Positions 1,799 to 50,322 of a stretch of 64,000 bases of DNA are shown here, piece by piece. This DNA comes from an uncultured Pseudomonadales bacterium. Lineage in GTDB: Bacteria; Patescibacteriota; Microgenomatia; UBA1400; CAYXSR01. Numbering within the stretch: position 1 is the stretch's first letter; every line of letters begins with the position of its first letter. The position numbers were made by a program, and so were the translations under genes. The notes below the pieces were generated by a model. That model did no database searches. It was not told the origin of the DNA and saw only the letters and a program-made list of their open reading frames with translations. The stretch is from NCBI GenBank assembly GCA_964430265.1, contig CAYSEI010000001.1, forward strand, positions 154,786 to 218,785. The letters run 5' to 3'.

Positions 1799-2452
1799 TC
1801 AGTCCTTATTTTTAGAAAGCAGTTTGATTAATAGCCATCCTGTGGCAAATCCTCCCACATGTGCAAAGTAGGCAATACCTCCGGTAGCTTGGTTCATGTA
1901 GGCTAGGCTGCCAAAACCCGAAATAAGTTCAAATATAAACCAGTAAAAAAGCATGAAATAAGCCGGTACGGTAGCGGTTCTTAAAACAAATCCAAAAGGT
2001 ATAAGAATCTCAATTTCTCTTCTCGGGTATAATACAAGATAACCTCCCATAACTCCGGCAATTGCACCGGATGCTCCCAAACTGGGAATGGTTGATCCAG
2101 TATTGATCAATATTTGTAATCCTGAAGCTCCTAGTCCGGTTATAAGATAAAATAGCAGGTATTTAAAATGTCCTAAACGATCCTCAAGGTTATCGCCAAA
2201 TATATGTAAAAAAAGCATGTTACCGAAAAGGTGCGCAAGCCCGCCGTGTAAAAAGAGTGAAGTCAATAGTGTATAAAGATTTTGCCCTTGGATAATTAAA
2301 TTCGGGACAACAGCATAATTGTTTATAAAACTTCTTAATTCGCCATTAGGAAGGGTAAAAGTAAAAAAGAAAACAATAATATTTACAGCAATTAAACTGT
2401 AGGTTACAAAAGGCAGTCTTCCTGAAGGGTTGTGATCTCTTATTGGTATCAT
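1799..2452 (-). CDS. Rhomboid family intramembrane serine protease
   Basis: Multi-pass membrane protein with the GASGAIAG catalytic Ser motif and the downstream AHVGGFATG His motif. Confidence 0.8.
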   Translation of the reverse strand: MIPIRDHNPSGRLPFVTYSLIAVNIIVFFFTFTLPNGELRSFINNYAVVPNLIIQGQNLYTLLTSLFLHGGLAHLFGNMLFLHIFGDNLEDRLGHFKYLLFYLITGLGASGLQILINTGSTIPSLGASGAIAGVMGGYLVLYPRREIEILIPFGFVLRTATVPAYFMLFYWFIFELISGFGSLAYMNQATGGIAYFAHVGGFATGWLLIKLLSKNKD

Positions 2453-2574: not shown

Positions 2575-3138
2575 ATGTTTACAGCAGATGAGTTACGGAA
2601 CGGAACCACTTTTGTATATAGGAATGATCCTTACAGGGTTGTAAAATACCGCCATAGTCATATTTCGCGTAGGGGTGCTAATTATAAGGTAAAAGCAAAA
2701 AATCTAAAGACGGGTTCAGTACAAACGTTTACATTTGGTTCCAAGGATAAATTTGAAGACGCATTTTTACAAAAAAAGAAAATGCAGTATTTATACAGTC
2801 AGGATGACTCGTTGGTATTAATGGATTTGAATGATTATCAGCAAAAACAACTGGACAAAAAGAAATTTGAAAAAGCTGCAAAGTTTTTAAAAGAAGGAGA
2901 AGAAGTATATGTTTGGATTTGGGATGATGAAATTTTGGAAATAGATTTGCCAACAGCGGTTGCTTTAAAAGTAGAAAAAGCACCTCCAGGTGTTAAAGGC
3001 GACTCAGCAACCGGGGCAACAAAAAAAGTGACTCTGGAAAATGGATTGGAAGTAAGAGTCCCGCTATTTATTAACAAAGGAGAAAAGATCTTGGTTGATA
3101 CGCGTAGTGAGGAATATTTGGAAAGATTTAAAGATTAA
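2575..3138 (+). CDS. efp: Elongation factor P
   Basis: EF-P signature regions: GDSATGATKKVTLENGLEVRVPLFINKGEKILVDTRSEEY and the N-terminal KNLKTGS loop. Confidence 0.9.
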   Translation: MFTADELRNGTTFVYRNDPYRVVKYRHSHISRRGANYKVKAKNLKTGSVQTFTFGSKDKFEDAFLQKKKMQYLYSQDDSLVLMDLNDYQQKQLDKKKFEKAAKFLKEGEEVYVWIWDDEILEIDLPTAVALKVEKAPPGVKGDSATGATKKVTLENGLEVRVPLFINKGEKILVDTRSEEYLERFKD

Positions 3139-6045: not shown

Positions 6046-6816
6046 ATGCTTGAACCACAAATAATTTATGAAGACAATTCAATCCTTGTAGTTAATAAAC
6101 CTTTTGGTTTGATAGTGAATAATTCTGAAAGTGCACGTGCATTAACATTACAAGCTTGGTTAAAGAAAAATCGTGAATATCACAAAAAAATAAGTGGGAA
6201 TAAACAAATAGAAAAGGAATTTAAAAAGAGGACTGGGATAGTACATAGATTGGACAGGGAGACAAGCGGTGTAATGGTGGTAGCAAAATCAATCAAGGCT
6301 TTTAAAGAACTTAAACAACAGTTTAAAGCCCGAGAAACGAGGAAGTTATATTATTGTTTAGTACATGGTTATGTAGAACCTCAAAAAGGTCATATACGCT
6401 GGCCAATTGCAAGGAATCCCAGAAATCGGTTGCGTTTTGCAGTTCGTGCCAAGGGTAGAATGTCTGAAACATTTTACAAAGTGGAGGAGAGGTATAAAAA
6501 AGAAAACAAAGAAACTGATCATGGTAAGAAAATAAATAAAGATTACACTTTTTTAAAAGTATTTCCTAAGACTGGCAGGACACACCAAATTAGAGTACAC
6601 TTGGATTTTATTGGTCACACAATTGTTTCTGACAGTTTGTATCTAAGCGGTGATAAATATCAGGAGGATTTGAATTGGTGTCCGCGCTTGTTTCTTCATG
6701 CAGCAGAATTGACATTCTTACACCCGAAAAAAGGGAAAAAAATGACTTTTGAAGCTTTAATGCCAAAACAGCTAAACCAGGTATTAAAACAGAACTTAAG
6801 CTTGACAATAAAATAA
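6046..6816 (+). CDS. RluA-family pseudouridine synthase
   Basis: Catalytic motif HRLDRETSGVMVVAK and the HQIRVHL block. Preceded by TGTATAAT at 6032-6039, 6 nt before the ATG. Confidence 0.85.
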   Translation: MLEPQIIYEDNSILVVNKPFGLIVNNSESARALTLQAWLKKNREYHKKISGNKQIEKEFKKRTGIVHRLDRETSGVMVVAKSIKAFKELKQQFKARETRKLYYCLVHGYVEPQKGHIRWPIARNPRNRLRFAVRAKGRMSETFYKVEERYKKENKETDHGKKINKDYTFLKVFPKTGRTHQIRVHLDFIGHTIVSDSLYLSGDKYQEDLNWCPRLFLHAAELTFLHPKKGKKMTFEALMPKQLNQVLKQNLSLTIK

Positions 6817-8013: not shown

Positions 8014-8742
8014 ATGTCAGGACATTCAAAGTGGAGTAAAATCAAACACCAGAAAAGTGCAGAAGACAAGAAAAGAAGCAAGGTTTTTTCCAAGCTTTCT
8101 GAAGCAATATCAACTGCTGTAAAAGAGGGCGGTGGAGATGATCCGGAATTTAATGCCCGTTTGAAAATGGAAATTGAAAAAGCAAAAGAGGCAAATATGC
8201 CAAAAGAAAATATTCAAAGCGCAATTGACAGGGGTGCAGGAAGAGGAGAATACGGGAAAACAGAAAATATTGTTTATGAAGGTTTTGCACCTCACAAAGT
8301 TGCTCTGGTTATAAAATGCAATACTGATAATAGAAACAGAACTGCTTCAGAAATTAAATACTTGTTTGATAAAAATAACGGTTCTTTAGGTGCACCCGGA
8401 TCAAGCAGTTATCTTTTTGAGGAAAAAGGTATTTTGGAAATTTTAAAAAACAAGAATGGGGAAGAGCAGGCGTTGGAGTTAATGGAGATGAATATAGAAG
8501 ACTTTGAATTAAAAAAAGAAAAAATAAAAGTATATGTATTACCAAAAAATTTAAGCGATATTAAAAATAAAATTAAAGAGTCGGGTTTTGAAATAAAAAA
8601 AGCGGGGATAGTATTAGAACCAAAATCCACAATCACTCTTTCAGAAGATAAATATAAAAAGGTTAACAACTTCATAAATGACTTAAAAGAACACGATGAT
8701 GTTCAAATGGTCTTTAGTAATATTAAACTCATAAATGGATAA
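8014..8742 (+). CDS. yebC: YebC/PmpR family transcriptional regulator
   Basis: Diagnostic N-terminus MSGHSKWSKIKHQK and the EGGGDDPEFNARL block. Preceded by TGaTATAAT at 7999-8007, 6 nt before the ATG. Confidence 0.9.
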   Translation: MSGHSKWSKIKHQKSAEDKKRSKVFSKLSEAISTAVKEGGGDDPEFNARLKMEIEKAKEANMPKENIQSAIDRGAGRGEYGKTENIVYEGFAPHKVALVIKCNTDNRNRTASEIKYLFDKNNGSLGAPGSSSYLFEEKGILEILKNKNGEEQALELMEMNIEDFELKKEKIKVYVLPKNLSDIKNKIKESGFEIKKAGIVLEPKSTITLSEDKYKKVNNFINDLKEHDDVQMVFSNIKLING

Positions 8743-15219: not shown

Positions 15220-15750
15220 ATGATTTTAAACCAGGAACAAATAATAATTATTGCAACAAAAGCAGGTAGGATTGGATTAATAATCCTTCTCGCCATTACA
15301 AGTGGAAAGATAATCGATTTTTTAGTTAAAAAATTGAGAAAGCAAATAAAACTTACAGGTATAGAAGAATCGGAAGATCAGAGAAGAAAAAGATTAAATA
15401 CAATTAATTCTTTATTAACTACCAGCAGCAGCATTATAATCAGTTTAATTGCTTTATTAATTATTCTGGCGGAATTAGGTGTTAATATTTTACCTCTTTT
15501 AACGGGAATAGGAATATTAGGTTTAGGTTTTGGTATGGGTGCAAAAACCATGATTTCTGATTTAATTGCGGGTTTTTTTATACTTCTTGAAAATCAGTTT
15601 AATGTTGGAGATCAGGTAAAACTTGGTGGTCAGTGGGAAGGAAAAGTGCAAGAAATTACATTAAGAACAGTCCATTTAAAAGACAAAAAAGGCAGAAAAT
15701 ATATTATTCCCAATTCACAAATAAATACGGTAATTATTTTAGAAGAATAA
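15220..15750 (+). CDS. Small MscS-family mechanosensitive channel
   Basis: Pore helix GMGAKTMISDLIAGFFILLENQFNVGDQVKL followed by the beta-domain ITLRTVHLKD..G.KYIIPNSQI. Confidence 0.6.
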   Translation: MILNQEQIIIIATKAGRIGLIILLAITSGKIIDFLVKKLRKQIKLTGIEESEDQRRKRLNTINSLLTTSSSIIISLIALLIILAELGVNILPLLTGIGILGLGFGMGAKTMISDLIAGFFILLENQFNVGDQVKLGGQWEGKVQEITLRTVHLKDKKGRKYIIPNSQINTVIILEE

Positions 15751-43763: not shown

Positions 43764-43882
43764 TTACTCAATTTTACTGAAAAAAGGAAAGAATGGGTAA
43801 AAGAGAGCTGGCAAGCATTGAAAATGCTACCAGGGATATTAAAACGATCTTTATCAGTTTGATCTTTTTTTTCCTTTTCATT

Positions 43883-45073
43883 TTACTCCGTTAATTTTAT
43901 CCAACGATTTTTACCTACATTTATTATATCACCTTTTTTAACTTCAGTTTTACCTCTTTTTTTCACCTTTTCTTGGTTTATTTCCACGGCATTGTTTCTT
44001 ATCCACCTTTTAGCTTGGGATTTACTGTCAGTAAAACCGACTTCTACTAAAAGGTCTCTTAATTTCAGCGGATTTGCTGATAAATCCGCAATTGGAAAAG
44101 TTTCCATTTGACTCGGTAGATTATTGCCTTGAAAAACTTTTTCAAATTCTTTTTTGGCTTTTTTTGCTTTATCCTCGGAATGCAGCATTTTTACTATTTC
44201 AAATGCCAAATCCTTTTTTGCTTGCATTGGGTCTTTGTTAACCAATGATCGATATTTCTCTACCCTGTCTAAAGAAATAGTGGTAATTAATTTAAAGCAT
44301 GGTACAACCAATTCGTCAGGAAGACTCATGATTTGCCCGTAAAGCTCGTCTGCTGGGTTAGTAATATTTATTGCATTTCCTCCTGTTTTGCTAATCTTGG
44401 TTCCGTCGGATCCGACAAGAAGCTTTGTGGTTATAACAAACTTTTCCTTGTCCAGGATTTGTTTTTCCAGTTTTCTGCCGATCATCATATTAAACATCTG
44501 GTCCGTACCGCCGATTTCTGCATCCACTTCCATTGCTACGGAATCATATCCTTGTACCAGCGGATATAGAAACTCGTTTAAATATATTTCTCGGTTATTT
44601 TTTAATCTTTCCTGGAACATGTCTCTTTCAATCAACTGTTGTACGGTTAGCTGTTTTGCAAGTCCCAAAACATCGGCAAAATCAAGCTTTTCATTCCATT
44701 CAGAATTAAACTTTAGCTGTATTGGATTGTCGCCTGTAAAGTCCAGGATTAACCCGGCTTGTTCTTCATAAGTTTTGGCGTTTTCCAAAACTTGTTTCTT
44801 TGTCAAAGTTTTTCTGGCTGTTGTTTTACCGCTGGGGTCACCGATCATGCCGGTAAAATCACCGATTAAAAATATTACTTCATGTCCCATTTCCTGGAAT
44901 TGTTTTAATGTCAGTAATCCTACCAAATGACCAATATGTAAATTGGGTTTTGAAGGGTCAAAACCCTGGTAAATACGGATTTTTTTCTTTTTGCGCAGTT
45001 TTTCTTCCAGCTCTTTTTCTGAAGGATATATTTTTGCAATTCTTCTGGTTAACAGTTCTTTTATTTTATCCAT
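43883..45073 (-). CDS. tyrS: Tyrosine--tRNA ligase
   Basis: Class I HIGH motif PNLHIGHLVG, KMSKS variant KISKTGG, and a C-terminal S4-like domain. Confidence 0.9.
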   Translation of the reverse strand: MDKIKELLTRRIAKIYPSEKELEEKLRKKKKIRIYQGFDPSKPNLHIGHLVGLLTLKQFQEMGHEVIFLIGDFTGMIGDPSGKTTARKTLTKKQVLENAKTYEEQAGLILDFTGDNPIQLKFNSEWNEKLDFADVLGLAKQLTVQQLIERDMFQERLKNNREIYLNEFLYPLVQGYDSVAMEVDAEIGGTDQMFNMMIGRKLEKQILDKEKFVITTKLLVGSDGTKISKTGGNAINITNPADELYGQIMSLPDELVVPCFKLITTISLDRVEKYRSLVNKDPMQAKKDLAFEIVKMLHSEDKAKKAKKEFEKVFQGNNLPSQMETFPIADLSANPLKLRDLLVEVGFTDSKSQAKRWIRNNAVEINQEKVKKRGKTEVKKGDIINVGKNRWIKLTE

Positions 45074-45093
45074 TTGTGTTTCCTTTCTTAATT

Positions 45094-46182
45094 TTAGAAT
45101 AAACTAGCTGTTTTGTCTAATAATATGAAATTTTTTAAGATTTTGGCAAATGTAAACAAGCTGGGTAAATGGATTTTCTCTTTTTCACTGTGTGCTCCCG
45201 TGCCTTTAGGCGAAGTTATTATTACGGGAATTTTTAATTGTGAGAAAAATCTAGCGTCTGAAGCACCACATTCATTTACAAGTTTAATTTTTCTTTTTAA
45301 CTCTTTTTCCGCTTCATTTTTCCAGATATTAATAAATTCACTTTTTCTGGAAACCTGAAACAATAAACCTTTATCAATAAATTCCAGTTGACAGTCATTT
45401 TGAGCACATATTTTCTTAATTTTTTTGATCAAAAGACTATTTTCTGCTTTTTCTATAAGTCTAACGTCAAAAAAAGCTTTACTTTCCTCCGGAATCTGAT
45501 TAAAAGCTTTGCCGGCTTCAAGTTTTGTTAAGCACAAAGTATTGCTGTTTTTGTTGTTGTTTCTTTTTTGAAGAATTCTATTTATCACGGGGATTATTTC
45601 TTCCAGGGGGTTTTTTCCCCTCCACGGCTGTGATGCGTGAGCGGAAACGCCTTTTTTTGTGATGCAGAAATGCAAAGGCGCTTTTTGCAGTTTTACGATG
45701 TCAAAATTAATCTGTGAGTCGGGAATGACAACTACTTTACAATCTTTGAACTTCACAGCCAATTTTGCAGCACCGTTAAATCCTCCGATTTCCTCATCCG
45801 AATTAATCATCAGGGCAAGGGGCAGATCTGGCTTTTGTTTTAGAACCTTAATAAATGTAATTATTAAAGCGGCTAAAGGGCCTTTCATGTCAATTGCTCC
45901 GCGTCCCAGAATCCAGGCTTTTTTTATTTTAGGCTTAAACATTTTTTTACTTCCCGGAACAACGTCAATATGGCCGCACAAAACAAGTTTGGGTTTTTTC
46001 TTTGTCTTGGCAATTAAAGACAAAAATCCATTTATTTCACAAATCTTAATATTAATGTTTTTAAGATCTTTTCTTAATACTTCTTTTATCTTTATTAATG
46101 CTTTTTCAGTTTCTTTTTTGTTGCCTGTAACTGTATTCTGTTCAATCAGTTCCAAACAAAGTTTTTTTATCTTCTTGTTCAT
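45094..46182 (-). CDS. M20-family metallopeptidase / aminoacylase (ArgE/DapE-like)
   Basis: Metal-binding motifs LCGHIDVVPG and GRGAIDMKG, then NSDEEIGG. Confidence 0.65.
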   Translation of the reverse strand: MNKKIKKLCLELIEQNTVTGNKKETEKALIKIKEVLRKDLKNINIKICEINGFLSLIAKTKKKPKLVLCGHIDVVPGSKKMFKPKIKKAWILGRGAIDMKGPLAALIITFIKVLKQKPDLPLALMINSDEEIGGFNGAAKLAVKFKDCKVVVIPDSQINFDIVKLQKAPLHFCITKKGVSAHASQPWRGKNPLEEIIPVINRILQKRNNNKNSNTLCLTKLEAGKAFNQIPEESKAFFDVRLIEKAENSLLIKKIKKICAQNDCQLEFIDKGLLFQVSRKSEFINIWKNEAEKELKRKIKLVNECGASDARFFSQLKIPVIITSPKGTGAHSEKEKIHLPSLFTFAKILKNFILLDKTASLF

Positions 46183-47207
46183 ATTTCCTTTCTAAACAAA
46201 TTTTCTATTTTCATAATTGCTTGTTCCATTTGCGGAGAAAAGCAATCGGTTGCCAGTTCCACAGGAGCCAACAGAGTATCTTTTTTAAGCTTTCCCATTA
46301 AAAGGGTTAATGGTTTTCTCCAATCAAAACCGCAGGCAATAAAACCGCTTTCCATAAGTCTTTGGATTGAAGAAAAATTACTTTTTGTCAATTGAAGCGG
46401 TGCCAGTAAAAATTTATGTTTGGCTTCAGATAGTGCTTGAGAAAGTCTTTTTCCTTTTTTATCCGGAAGTAACACTGAAAATGGTCCTTGATTGCTTACG
46501 GAGAAAGTTGTTTGTCCTGCTTTTTCATTTGGTTCCTCAAATGAAATTTCTGTAAAAGGAAATAGAGATTGGGTAATTTTTATCAATGCTTCATAGTCGT
46601 TCAGTTGAACGGGTAGGGTAATTTTTTGAGGACAGGCAAATTTTTTCAGGATCGAGAAACAGAAAAATTCGTGTCTGTCCGGTCCTTTTGGCCCGGGATG
46701 ATGAAATGCAGGTAAAATAGCATGCGGTGTCATGCCAATATTTTTTATAGCAGTTGCTTGAGACCCTTGACCTCCTTCAATATCTTCAAAATCTGCTGAC
46801 AAGCGTATTTCAGCTGTTAAAGGTTTTGTCCTGCCCATGTGACTTTTTGCAGCTTCCATCATTAATATGCTTGCCTTTTTACCGTTTTCCGGATGATTTG
46901 CGGCTCTGCCGATTTCAACATTATCTTTATGTTGAACAAGAGCTGTACAAGCAGTAAATTCACCCAAATTATTTTGTAAAAACCAGGGTATAACTTTTTG
47001 ACTACGGATAGAGTCTTCTGTTTCCTCTATTGAAGGAAGAAGGTTGTGCCTACCGTAAACTGCAGAAAGTATCTGTGTTATTGCTTCTGCTGCTTGATCA
47101 TGCGGAATATCCCCGGGCATGATAATTTTATTATCTAAAGGGATTTCTTCCCTTTTTCTGCTAAGAGTATCCAGAAACTCTGGTTTACAATGGTTTAAAG
47201 TTTCCAT
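46179..47207 (-). CDS. Hypothetical 342-aa protein, first gene behind the putative T-box leader
   Basis: Unbroken ORF that overlaps the M20 gene start by 4 nt. No motif recognised. Confidence 0.5.
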   Translation of the reverse strand: METLNHCKPEFLDTLSRKREEIPLDNKIIMPGDIPHDQAAEAITQILSAVYGRHNLLPSIEETEDSIRSQKVIPWFLQNNLGEFTACTALVQHKDNVEIGRAANHPENGKKASILMMEAAKSHMGRTKPLTAEIRLSADFEDIEGGQGSQATAIKNIGMTPHAILPAFHHPGPKGPDRHEFFCFSILKKFACPQKITLPVQLNDYEALIKITQSLFPFTEISFEEPNEKAGQTTFSVSNQGPFSVLLPDKKGKRLSQALSEAKHKFLLAPLQLTKSNFSSIQRLMESGFIACGFDWRKPLTLLMGKLKKDTLLAPVELATDCFSPQMEQAIMKIENLFRKEI

Positions 47208-47500
47208 ATTGCCCCCTTAATTTACTAATAAAGGGGCGAAGAATGCGCGGTACCACCCTACTTCACTTTGTTAAAAGCCACAAAAAAACTCTGGTGTCAC
47301 CAGAGTTAAACAGCTTAACAAAGTCTTTTTTTGACATGCTCTGTTTCTAGTGTGACACATGTTAGCAATATCACGGTTGCAACCGTCAAGGCTTACTTTT
47401 TGATTCGGCCTTGCTGCTCCGGAGGGTATTTCCTAGAATTTATACGGCGGATCTTTCAGCAACCGTCCGCTCTCTGGTGTCACTAAATTCTATTTAGTTC
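47208..47500 (-). promoter_or_regulatory. Putative T-box riboswitch leader (translational type) for the hyp-M20-tyrS operon
   Basis: Minus-strand RNA contains UAGGGUGGUACCGCG (rc of 47255-47268). It can fold as an antiterminator: A1 AGGG/CCCU, bulge UGGUACC, A2 GCG/CGC. The alternative hairpin CGCCCCUUUAUUAGUAAAUUAAGGGGGC sequesters the SD AAGGGGG, 9 nt before the ATG at 47207. Upstream stem-loops include a perfect CUCUGGU-GAC-ACCAGAG hairpin. Confidence 0.5.
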
Positions 47501-47655
47501 TCCTCTTTCTATGCATTTGTCAATTGTAATTTAGTAGTTTAAACAAAAAGGATTTGCTTGTCAAATCCAGTTATTTAAAACAGAAGTAAAACCAGATAAT
47601 TATGAATGTTTAAAGGGTTGTATAAAAACATGGATTTTGCTAAACTAAACAGGAT

Positions 47656-50322
47656 ATGAGTTGGAAACGTACATGGAAACGACGCATCAGTAAGATAAAA
47701 TCAGGGATCTCCTTTAAAAAAGGCAAATGGAACAGGGCAAAAGTTATTAAAACCCTTGCTATTTTAGCCTTTTTGGGAGCTTTTACCCTGTTTTTTGCAA
47801 CTTTCATCCTTTTTGCCTGGTATGCAAAGGATCTTCCCAAGCCAAACAAAATTGTCAGGCATGAGGGTTTTGCAACCAAAATTTTTGACCGTGACGGCGA
47901 ACTGCTTTATGATGTTTTTGCAGATCAAAGACGTGTTCCTGTGGAAATTGATGAGGTTCCTGAAGATTTAAGGCATGCAACAATTGCAATTGAGGACAAA
48001 AATTTTTATGAACACAGCGGATTTGACCTTTTGGGTTGGGTACGTGCTCTTTACAGAATTGTAGTCTACCGCCGCTTGGAAGGTGGATCCACCTTAACCC
48101 AACAGCTTGTGAAAAATGTTTTGCTTTCTCCAAAAAGAACAATTGGCAGAAAAGTAAAAGAATTTGTTTTGGCGGTTCAAATTGAGAATAAATATACAAA
48201 AGACGAGATTTTGCAGATGTATCTTAATGAAGCTCCATATGGAGGAACTGCTTGGGGTGTTGAGGCAGCTGCGGAAATGTATTTTGGCAAACATGTTGCT
48301 GATCTGGATTTAGTTGAATCAGCTATACTCGCAGGATTGCCGCAAAGACCATCGTTTTATTCGCCTTACAGTGATCATCCGGATGCATGGAAAGGAAGAA
48401 CTCAACATGTTTTAAGAAGAATGCGTGAGGACGGATACGTTTCAAAGGAAAAGGAAGAGGAAGCTTTGGAAAAGCTTGATGAAGTTGATTTTGCCACTCC
48501 AAGCCAGGAAATGAAAGCCCCGCATTTTGTAATGTATGTTAAAAGACAATTGGAAGAAAAATACGGCAGAAGGTTGATTGAACAGGGAGGATTAAAAATA
48601 ACTACTTCCCTGGATTGGAAGCTTCAGGAAGAGGCTCAGGAAATTGTAAAAACAGAGATTGAAAAAGTTGAAGAACCACTCCATATTACCAATGGAGCAG
48701 CAATGGTAATGGATCCTACGACCGGTGAAATATTAAGTATGGTGGGTTCAAAAGATTTTTTTGCGGAAGATTATGACGGACAAGTTAATGTTACTCTTTC
48801 CAAGCGTCAGCCGGGATCCTCAATTAAGCCGATTACCTATGTAACCGCATTTAAAAAAGGATACAATCCCGCAACTATGATTGTGGATGCGGAAACACGC
48901 TTTTCCGGCGGTACGGGTGGAAAAGATTATGTTCCCAAAAACTATGATGGCAAATTCCATGGTCCTGTACAAGTCAGGCAAGCACTAGGTAGTTCTTTAA
49001 ATATTCCGGCAGTTAAGATGCTGGCAATGACAGGTTTGGAAAATGTTTTGCAAACTGCTTATGAAATGGGATTTGATTATTTAAAACCGACAGATGCAAC
49101 TATGAGAAGATTGGGACTTTCATTTACTTTGGGAGGCGGAGAGGTTAGGCTAATAGATATGGCTTCAGCCTACTCTACTTTTGCAAATAGTGGTAAAAAA
49201 GTAAGCCCGGTGTCGATTTTAAAAGTTGAAGACAGGCAAGGGAATGTATTGGAGGAATTTAAACCAATTAAAGGCGAGCAGGTTTTGTCACCCGGCGAAG
49301 CATATTTAATTACCGATATTTTATCCGACAACAATGCGCGATTATTGACTTTTGGACAAAACAGTCTTTTAAATATGCCCGGAAGAACAGTGGCGGTTAA
49401 GACCGGAACAACCGATGATATGCGTGATAACTGGGCAATCGGCTGGACGCCTAAGTTTATAACCGCAGTATGGGTTGGAAATAATGACAATTCTACCATG
49501 AAAAGAGTTGCTTCAGGAATCTCCGGGGCATCTCCAATTTGGAGACAGATTATGCTTGCCATTTTCCGGGAAAATCCGGTTAGGGAGTTTGAGGTCCCTG
49601 ATAATGTAATTAATCAGGAAGTTGATGTTATTTCCGGATATCCTGCACACGACGATTTTCCGTCAAGAAATGAATATTTTGTTAAAGGCACTATACCCCA
49701 AGGAGAAGATCCAATTCACAAGAAGATGAAGATTTGTAAAAGTGATAATAATAAATTAGCACCAAAAACATTAATTGAAAAAGGTGAATATGATGAAAAG
49801 GAATTTATAGTTTTAAAAGAAAACGATTCGGTAAGCGGAGACGGAAAAAACCGTTGGCAGGAAGGAATAAATAGCTGGATAGAAAATCAAGGAGATCAGC
49901 GTTATCACTACCCAACTGAATATTGTGATGCAGATCAAGAATTAATTGTAAAAATTAAAGACCCGGACGACAAGGAAAAAATTGACAGCAACGAAGTTAA
50001 AGTGGAAGCGGAAGTAATCAGTAACAAATCCGTTGATAGACTTGAAATTTATGTAAACGACGACAAAAAAGAAACCTTAAGAAGCAGGCCTTACAAAACT
50101 AATTTTGTATTATCCGAAGGAACATATGAAATAAAAGTGAAAGTTTATGACTCGGACGGAAATAAAGACGAGTCCAGTGTCAGAATTGGTGTTAAAAAAG
50201 AATGGGACTGGTCTCCGGATCCCTCACCTTCACCTGAGCCGACACCTGAACCGTCTCCGAATCCCTCGCCTTCTCCTGAACCAGCTGAACCGAGCCCTTC
50301 ACCTGAAGCAGCGGAAGATTAA
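47656..50322 (+). CDS. Class A penicillin-binding protein (PBP1A-type transglycosylase/transpeptidase) with C-terminal extension
   Basis: GT51 motifs EDKNFYEHSGFD and the RKVKEFVLA region. Transpeptidase motifs SGSSIKP (SxxK) and KTGTT. Also a ~200-aa C-terminal Ig-like region and a PSPEP-rich tail. Confidence 0.9.
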   Translation: MSWKRTWKRRISKIKSGISFKKGKWNRAKVIKTLAILAFLGAFTLFFATFILFAWYAKDLPKPNKIVRHEGFATKIFDRDGELLYDVFADQRRVPVEIDEVPEDLRHATIAIEDKNFYEHSGFDLLGWVRALYRIVVYRRLEGGSTLTQQLVKNVLLSPKRTIGRKVKEFVLAVQIENKYTKDEILQMYLNEAPYGGTAWGVEAAAEMYFGKHVADLDLVESAILAGLPQRPSFYSPYSDHPDAWKGRTQHVLRRMREDGYVSKEKEEEALEKLDEVDFATPSQEMKAPHFVMYVKRQLEEKYGRRLIEQGGLKITTSLDWKLQEEAQEIVKTEIEKVEEPLHITNGAAMVMDPTTGEILSMVGSKDFFAEDYDGQVNVTLSKRQPGSSIKPITYVTAFKKGYNPATMIVDAETRFSGGTGGKDYVPKNYDGKFHGPVQVRQALGSSLNIPAVKMLAMTGLENVLQTAYEMGFDYLKPTDATMRRLGLSFTLGGGEVRLIDMASAYSTFANSGKKVSPVSILKVEDRQGNVLEEFKPIKGEQVLSPGEAYLITDILSDNNARLLTFGQNSLLNMPGRTVAVKTGTTDDMRDNWAIGWTPKFITAVWVGNNDNSTMKRVASGISGASPIWRQIMLAIFRENPVREFEVPDNVINQEVDVISGYPAHDDFPSRNEYFVKGTIPQGEDPIHKKMKICKSDNNKLAPKTLIEKGEYDEKEFIVLKENDSVSGDGKNRWQEGINSWIENQGDQRYHYPTEYCDADQELIVKIKDPDDKEKIDSNEVKVEAEVISNKSVDRLEIYVNDDKKETLRSRPYKTNFVLSEGTYEIKVKVYDSDGNKDESSVRIGVKKEWDWSPDPSPSPEPTPEPSPNPSPSPEPAEPSPSPEAAED

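Follow-up and report, generated by a model that had tools for sequence, protein, structure and literature searches.

Organization of the locus and its host

The window, i.e. the whole 64-kb stretch of DNA that was analysed, carries on its minus strand a three-gene unit which ends with tyrS and is preceded by a long leader and a promoter-like site. These elements are as follows.

47536..47564 (-), promoter-like TTGACA-17-TAAACT found by the promoter scan, with a predicted transcription start at about 47529
47229..47520 (-), T-box leader, given as the extent of the RF00230 match
46179..47207 (-), gene 1, 342-aa protein with an N-terminal GNAT fold, start ATG at 47207
45094..46182 (-), gene 2, M20-family metallohydrolase (ArgE/DapE-like), whose start overlaps the gene 1 stop (ATGA)
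43883..45073 (-), gene 3, tyrS, bacterial-type tyrosine--tRNA ligase with an S4 domain (TIGR00234, 362 bits)

An earlier note on this DNA had expected tyrS two genes downstream of the first gene, and it does occupy the third place in the unit; a gap of 120 nt separates it from recG, the next gene. The tyrS gene has a Shine-Dalgarno sequence (SD) of its own. A promoter-like TAGACA-17-TAAAAT lies just upstream of it, at 45119-45091, within 48 nt that are shared with two other loci, L013 and L014 (see below), and tyrS may be transcribed independently, in which case it would escape T-box control.

The gene 1 protein matched no Pfam or NCBIfam family, and its own family counts 10 members among 5.8 billion sequences. 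A scan of genome contigs with this protein gave no match, an alignment-based contig scan for gene 1 gave one Candidatus Roizmanbacteria locus, which is devoid of a T-box, and a metagenome scan for gene 1 homologues added only four loci. In the contigs with gene 1 homologues (L001-L012, of which L001 was also recovered as L009, and L008 as L012) tyrS is always adjacent, and the M20 gene is present or not. The family is linked to tyrS of both the bacterial and the archaeal type; the TyrRS of L008 (Roizmanbacteria) is 19% identical to that of the window. This linkage suggests that the GNAT-fold protein has a tyrosine- or Tyr-tRNA-linked function.

The closest named homologues of the window TyrRS come from Candidatus Microgenomates (59% identity), Candidatus Beckwithbacteria (57%) and the Patescibacteria group (52-56%). 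A closer homologue (64%) is labelled Candidatus Bathyarchaeia, which was taken as a binning error. Judged by the source names of these homologues, the host almost certainly belongs to the Patescibacteria (CPR) and is of the Microgenomates type.

Identification of the T-box leader

The earlier note had proposed a T-box riboswitch on the basis of a 15-nt match to the conserved core, and this string, UAGGGUGGUACCGCG, was found at 47260-47246 (-). The check that it had suggested, a scan with the Rfam T-box model RF00230, gave a match at 47520..47229 (-) with a score of 106.9 bits (gathering score 93) and an E value of 1.3e-22. The alignment is full-length (model positions 1-219 of 219), and at Rfam gathering scores the 64-kb window contains no other T-box match. 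The span 47208-47500 that had been assigned to the leader is too short: the match reaches 47520 and the transcript would begin at about 47529, which gives a leader of about 320 nt when counted from the promoter-like site at 47564-47536. L013 carries an identical promoter-like site, and the other leaders have TTGACA-type sites at an equivalent position.

Equivalent T-box leaders, scoring 95-105.5 bits, were detected in eight related metagenomic loci: L001-L005, L007, L013 and L014. The recurrence of the leader in related genomes carrying the same unit, on which the proposal also depended, was thereby seen, as the T-box precedes the unit in L001, L002, L003/L004, L005 and L007. No RF00230 T-box was found in L006, L008 (Candidatus Roizmanbacteria) and L010.

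In an alignment of seven leaders, double changes that preserve pairing were seen in 15 of the 17 pairs predicted for Stem I; MAFFT shifted the K-turn base by one column, and the covariation of the basal stem is a by-eye reading only. The variants of helix A1 (AGGG/CCCU, AAGG/CCUU, GAGG/CCUC and CAGG/CCUG) were likewise compared by eye. As expected for T-boxes, the minimum free energy (MFE) fold of the whole leader does not recover Stem I, and the structure was taken instead from the covariance model (CM) alignment and domain-wise folds.

The idea of a mere chance likeness to the T-box core, for which only the shortness of the 15-nt motif speaks, has a negligible probability: it is ruled out by the full-length CM match, the orthologous matches in eight other loci and the Stem I covariation. 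By its sequence, the leader upstream of the ORF at 47207 is a genuine, Tyr-specific member of the T-box family. Its predicted architecture is that of a canonical long Stem I with lineage-specific insertions, and all testable features that define a T-box are present, except for the purine 3' of the specifier.

Stem I and predicted recognition of tRNA-Tyr

The K-turn, the specifier loop and the distal platform of Stem I, whose absence would have spoken against a T-box, were all identified.

47416..47514 (-), Stem I, about 99 nt (RF00230 alignment, motif coordinates, covariation)
Base of Stem I (-), K-turn GC-AUA-GA ... GGA-GC (RF00230 alignment, motif coordinates)
Stem I (-), specifier internal loop AGAACUA / GAAAUACC (RF00230 alignment)
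47426..47428 (-), specifier codon UAC (Tyr), placed by CM position and followed by C47425
47492-47484 / 47442-47434 (-), middle helix of 9 bp, UAGAAUUUA / UAAAUUCUA (motif coordinates)
47477-47469 (-), AG bulge CCAGAGAGC, aligned to the AGAGA model columns with high posterior probability
Stem I (-), distal helix GCGGA/UCCGC, covarying between leaders
47464-47453 (-), distal loop GGUUGCUGAAAG, aligned to the GgUUGGUGaaA model columns with high posterior probability

The specifier stands in the context GAA-A-UAC-C, which is followed by the CUCC stem strand. UACC is invariant across all related leaders and the base preceding it is A or U. UAC is the specifier favoured by Tyr T-boxes (TBDB). The tRNA-Tyr of this genome lies outside the window, and the evidence on its anticodon and discriminator comes from relatives' genes: UAC can pair with the GUA anticodon encoded by the tRNA-Tyr genes of L002-L004, whose discriminator, read by eye, is A and fits UGGU. 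The UGGU of the T-box bulge is, in turn, complementary to ACCA. With an invariant UAC specifier and tyrS downstream, tRNA-Tyr is upheld as the effector that the earlier note had named.

The codon itself had been sought elsewhere, in GCCGUAUAAAUUC (47445-47436). The UAU of this string, at 47444-47442, lies at the junction of the internal loop and the middle helix: its last U opens the 9-bp helix and its other two bases are situated opposite the AG bulge. This candidate was rejected because one of its bases belongs to a Stem I helix strand; the true specifier codon, UAC, is found at 47428-47426. The frames that follow from strict glyQS spacing, AUA and UUA (Ile/Leu), were rejected as well. They differ between orthologous leaders because the base before UACC varies between A and U, and UAC was chosen over them since it is invariant and matches both tyrS and the tRNA-Tyr genes.

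A purine 3' of the specifier codon, normally conserved in T-boxes (PMC7583486), had also been claimed. This did not hold, as UAC is followed by C47425 in the window and by C in every related leader examined. It is a deviation at one conserved position, which leaves the architecture unaffected. In the window and in L003 the C may pair with an extra G of the 5' strand.

From Stem II to Stem III

The region between Stem I and the T-box core contains the following elements.

47387..47414 (-), Stem II with an S-turn-type GAA...AGUA loop and CAAGGC/GCCUUG (RF00230 alignment, folds)
47365..47386 (-), Stem IIA ACGG/CCGU together with the IIA/B pseudoknot region (RF00230 alignment, motif coordinates)
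47386-47373 (-), Stem IIA proper (RF00230 alignment)
47380-47377 with 47368-47365 (-), IIA/B pseudoknot strands, GCAA with UUGC (RF00230 alignment)
47334..47362 (-), extra lineage-specific hairpin, CAUG/CAUG, between IIA/B and Stem III (inserted with respect to the Rfam model)
47265..47325 (-), Stem III, 61 nt (folding; -22.5 kcal/mol for the whole stem)
47307-47282 (-), top of Stem III, 9-bp terminator- or pause-like hairpin with U7 (terminator scan; -10.9 kcal/mol)

Stem II is reduced in L002, L005 and L007, where GAA/AGUA is missing. The pseudoknot covaries, as judged by eye: GCAA:UUGC in the window is replaced by GCGC:GCGC in L001, L002 and L005, and by UCGC:GCGA in L003. The extra hairpin folds in every leader, with CGUG/CACG in L001.

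The top of Stem III could have a function of its own. RNA polymerase pause sites, the first of them at position 138, have been described in the B. subtilis glyQS T-box leader (PMC13001445), and a similar pause role for the hairpin at 47307-47282 is a reasonable reading. One may go further and regard this hairpin as the decisive element, a programmed pause or partial terminator which times tRNA binding and is compatible with either expression platform. Besides the reported glyQS pauses, this proposal draws on the fact that the hairpin is called terminator-like in the window and that a GC hairpin with U5-U7, differing in sequence, recurs at the same place in most relatives (L002, L003/4, L005, L007, L013 and L014). 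However, the U-run partly pairs with upstream A's in the longer Stem III, L001 lacks such an element, and a hairpin alone cannot sense tRNA charging. We consider the proposal possible, albeit rather doubtful.

An exact 12-nt direct repeat, GUGACACCAGAG, is present at 47483-47472 (the AG-bulge region of Stem I) and at 47300-47289 (the Stem III hairpin), with 0.02 such repeats expected by chance. It is kept in L013, the exact repeat is missing in L014, and the other lineages have nothing comparable. A long-range pairing through this repeat, controlling the Stem III hairpin, is not supported, as the exact repeat does not occur in L014 or the other lineages.

The expression platform

The 3' part of the leader can form two alternative structures.

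47232..47259 (-), anti-sequestrator (antiterminator-type), AGGG-UGGUACC-GCG-CAUUCUU-CGC-CCCU, -4.4 kcal/mol
Within 47232..47259 (-), its parts: helix A1 AGGG/CCCU, bulge UGGUACC at 47255-47249, helix A2 GCG/CGC (RF00230 alignment)
47211..47237 (-), sequestrator hairpin GCCCCUUUA-UUAGUAAAU-UAAGGGGGC, 9 bp with a 9-nt loop, about -13 to -14.5 kcal/mol
47212..47218 (-), SD-like AAGGGGG inside the 3' arm of the hairpin

All strings that had been quoted in the earlier note for an antiterminator with a 7-nt bulge are present at 47259-47232, and its SD-pairing hairpin without a U-tract was recovered too: the hairpin at 47237-47211 holds AAGGGGG and is directly followed by AAUAUGGAAACUUUAAACC. The two structures overlap at 47237-47232, i.e. 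they are mutually exclusive. No U-run occurs within 25 nt after the hairpin, where the terminator scan calls nothing, and the hairpin ends 3 nt (AAU) before the ATG at 47207. The distance of 9 nt that had been given between the SD and the ATG needs correction: the last G lies 4 nt and the first A 11 nt from the ATG, and a 4-nt spacing is short.

The energies of the anti-sequestrator (-4.4 kcal/mol) and of the hairpin (-14.5 kcal/mol) are inside the published ranges for T-box antiterminators and terminators. Calculated for the 160-nt 3' domain, the probability that the SD bases are unpaired rises from about 0 in the free ensemble to 0.15-0.98 once the anti-sequestrator is imposed. The MFE of this domain is -51.2 kcal/mol when free versus -36.3 kcal/mol with the anti-sequestrator enforced, a difference that tRNA binding would need to pay, as in other T-boxes. 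No alternative SD or start codon for gene 1 was found in the sequence and the homologue alignment; its N-terminus aligns with homologues also beginning with ME-. The features of the translational T-box class, namely an SD in the competing helix, no terminator U-tract and a nearby start codon, are all present here.

On the other hand, the SD-like run is not independent evidence, because the 3' arm of a T-box terminator must be G-rich in order to be complementary to CCCU. SDs of the AAGGAG type are used by leadered and internal genes of the window, which is in line with a functional SD in front of gene 1. Overall SD use is low: 11 of the 53 ORFs of at least 150 aa have one, compared with a background of 10.7%.

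Many genes of the window have a TATAAT-like box 5-8 nt before their start codon, for instance those at 1799-2452(-), 2575-3138(+), 6046-6816(+), 8014-8742(+) and 15220-15750(+). Such boxes near the starts suggest that leaderless mRNAs may be widespread in this organism.

Platforms of the related leaders

All related leaders, including that of L013, end in a hairpin with 6-7 U, which speaks against a translational reading. In L005 the called ATG directly follows the terminator U-run; in L001 GGAGG and a second ATG follow it.

In three loci the T-box terminator is separated from the gene 1 homologue by a tRNA-Tyr (GUA) gene (L002 1647-1731, L003 517-601 and L004 437-521), and the ATG lies 2 nt after the 3' end of the tRNA, with no SD. 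In these loci the riboswitch would control its own ligand, and the mRNA would be nearly leaderless after tRNA processing.

L003/L004 and L007 carry a 38-nt insertion atop the antiterminator helix A2, yet have U-tract terminators. Insertions at the top of A2 have been reported as typical of translational T-boxes (PMC7583486).

A close strain with another platform and other genes

The TyrRS encoded by L013 is 97% identical to that of the window, and BLASTN aligned the two loci in two blocks. In the first, window 49809..47251 corresponds to L013 1..2559 with 97.4% identity and takes in a PBP1A gene and the promoter as well as the T-box up to and including UAGGGUGGUA. In the second, window 45121..43857 corresponds to L013 4687..5951 with 96% identity. 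The left identity boundary (47251; L013 2559) falls inside the universally conserved T-box core. Beyond it, L013 continues with a canonical terminator, AGCCGUCCCUUUACGGGGCGGUU plus UUUUU, with seven consecutive U, and after the terminator come about 200 nt of extra leader, a sulfatase-like gene and an MBL-fold gene. L014, whose TyrRS is 62% identical, shows an L013-like arrangement.

Both L013 and L014 contain GGGCAAUAUAGAAAC at the site occupied in the window by GGGCAAUAUGGAAAC, with which gene 1 begins. Moreover, the 48 nt before tyrS that the window shares with L013 and L014 encode the last nine residues of the window M20 protein (LDKTASLF), a tail which resembles that of the L003 M20 protein (LDKSKIFH). 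These apparent relics of the gene 1 start and the M20 tail hint that the GNAT-fold and M20 genes were present first. It is just as conceivable that such short matches result from conservation of a tyrS promoter.

On these data we tentatively suggest, well short of regarding it as probable, that the Tyr T-box gates a flexible gene slot before tyrS, that recombination swaps the read-out of one aptamer between translational and transcriptional, and that the GNAT-fold protein might act on tyrosine or Tyr-tRNA. If this slot reading is true, the platform changes with the cassette, being an SD-sequestrator beside the GNAT-fold and M20 genes and a seven-U terminator beside the sulfatase-like and MBL-fold genes, and the pair would be a natural read-out switch.

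The U-less hairpin, which in our data is unique to this genome, could also be a by-product of cassette exchange. The aptamer would then be intact and the platform damaged by recombination, with a hairpin that either constitutively lowers gene 1 translation or is inert. Such damage would agree with the break in identity to L013 in the T-box core, at 47251, and its resumption at 45121, and with the finding of the U-less version in one genome only. It is nevertheless quite improbable: the exclusivity between A1/A2 and the hairpin is precisely retained, A1 AGGG/CCCU and A2 GCG/CGC are intact across the junction, and the new 3' arm forms 9 bp without a mismatch.

Between the terminator and the sulfatase-like gene, L013 (2625-2710) and L014 (about 1905-1995) share a conserved, long and stable hairpin, GCAAUAUAGAAAC...GUUUCUAUAUUGC, with a z-score of -4.3. 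It had no Rfam match and could serve as a further regulatory RNA or as a site of processing.

Proposed translational read-out

Based on our observations, we suggest, with a probability of roughly 0.6, that the Tyr T-box ahead of the three-gene unit (GNAT-fold protein, M20 hydrolase and tyrS) acts by gating translation initiation in its Patescibacteria-type host. What we infer here is that tRNA binds, that the read-out is translational and that tyrS is affected at all. In the proposed mechanism, the UAC specifier and the distal platform of Stem I would recognise uncharged tRNA-Tyr, whose free 3' ACCA would pair with UGGU in the T-box bulge. This pairing would stabilise the otherwise weak anti-sequestrator at 47259-47232. 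Without it, the stronger hairpin at 47237-47211 would form and bury the sole SD before the ATG. The gated step would be the initiation of gene 1 translation rather than transcription termination, and gene 2 would follow via the ATGA overlap. An effect on tyrS could be only indirect, via polarity or mRNA stability.

It is the absence of a U-tract, together with the SD inside the competing hairpin, that argues for translational gating of gene 1, and translational control at this locus seems likely. The reading is also consistent with the documented existence of translational T-boxes with a long Stem I and with Stem III/A2 insertions (PMC7583486). The main competitor is an action at the transcript level, either through a U-less stop or destabilised RNA polymerase, or through Rho-type polarity or mRNA decay set off when gene 1 is left untranslated. 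Every related leader uses an intrinsic terminator at the equivalent position, and operon-wide control that includes tyrS would require a transcript-level effect; both would be accommodated by this explanation. However, no U-run follows the stem within 25 nt, and the stem counts just 9 bp around a loop of 9 nt, its energy being about -13 to -14.5 kcal/mol. We regard an action at the transcript level as unlikely and prefer the translational read-out.

Comparison with known T-boxes

T-boxes are well understood in Firmicutes and Actinobacteria. A search of one full-text library returned no paper discussing T-boxes together with Patescibacteria; Rfam-based annotation would find T-boxes in these bacteria. 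The locus described here offers a complete, covarying Tyr T-box in Patescibacteria, i.e. a known kind of element with what would be a rare platform. Together with L013 it forms a matched natural pair, in which one aptamer is joined to a seven-U terminator in L013 and to a U-less, putatively SD-sequestering hairpin in the window. The origin of translational from transcriptional T-boxes is an open point (PMC7583486), and the pair bears on how the former arise from the latter. For the GNAT-fold family, which is uncharacterised, the switch also suggests functions linked to tyrosine.

The closest likeness in the aptamer is to the Firmicutes Tyr T-boxes of the Bacillus subtilis tyrS type, with which the leader shares the UAC specifier and tyrS control (here proposed), the Stem I K-turn, specifier side loop, AG bulge and distal loop, as well as Stem II, the IIA/B pseudoknot, Stem III and the 14-nt T-box core with its UGGN bulge. 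In contrast to these T-boxes, the window has a platform hairpin that lacks a U-tract and encloses the SD, the codon is followed by C in place of the conserved purine, and the 5' side of the specifier loop reads ACUA instead of AGUA. The window leader further differs in the extra hairpin between IIA/B and Stem III and in its 61-nt Stem III, as do the Patescibacteria-type host and the two unrelated enzyme genes that precede tyrS.

With respect to the platform, the earlier note had likened the element to the translational ileS T-boxes of Actinobacteria (Mycobacterium tuberculosis, Nocardia farcinica). The SD-sequestering logic stands: an anti-sequestrator and an SD-sequestrator compete on the same discriminator, a terminator U-tract is missing, and Stem II and IIA/B are present. 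The likeness does not extend to the aptamer. The actinobacterial ileS T-boxes mostly have an ultrashort or intermediate Stem I without a distal platform, read the codon in the apical loop and are Ile-specific (PMC7583486, reviewing Sherwood et al. 2015), whereas Stem I of the window is about 99 nt long, carries its specifier in a side loop and has both platform motifs; the switch is Tyr-specific and is not of the short-stem type. Just 'a few' translational T-boxes have a long Stem I, and an insertion in Stem III, which the window shares, is a reported trait of the translational class (PMC7583486).

Finally, the staphylococcal glyS T-box resembles the present one in being the leader of an aminoacyl-tRNA synthetase gene with clade-specific insertions, and in that system the same aminoacyl-tRNA is also used by GNAT-fold (Fem) transferases (PMC4574755, PMC9177973). 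Unlike the window platform as read here, the staphylococcal glyS T-box is transcriptional, and use of Tyr-tRNA by the GNAT-fold protein of the window would be conjectural.
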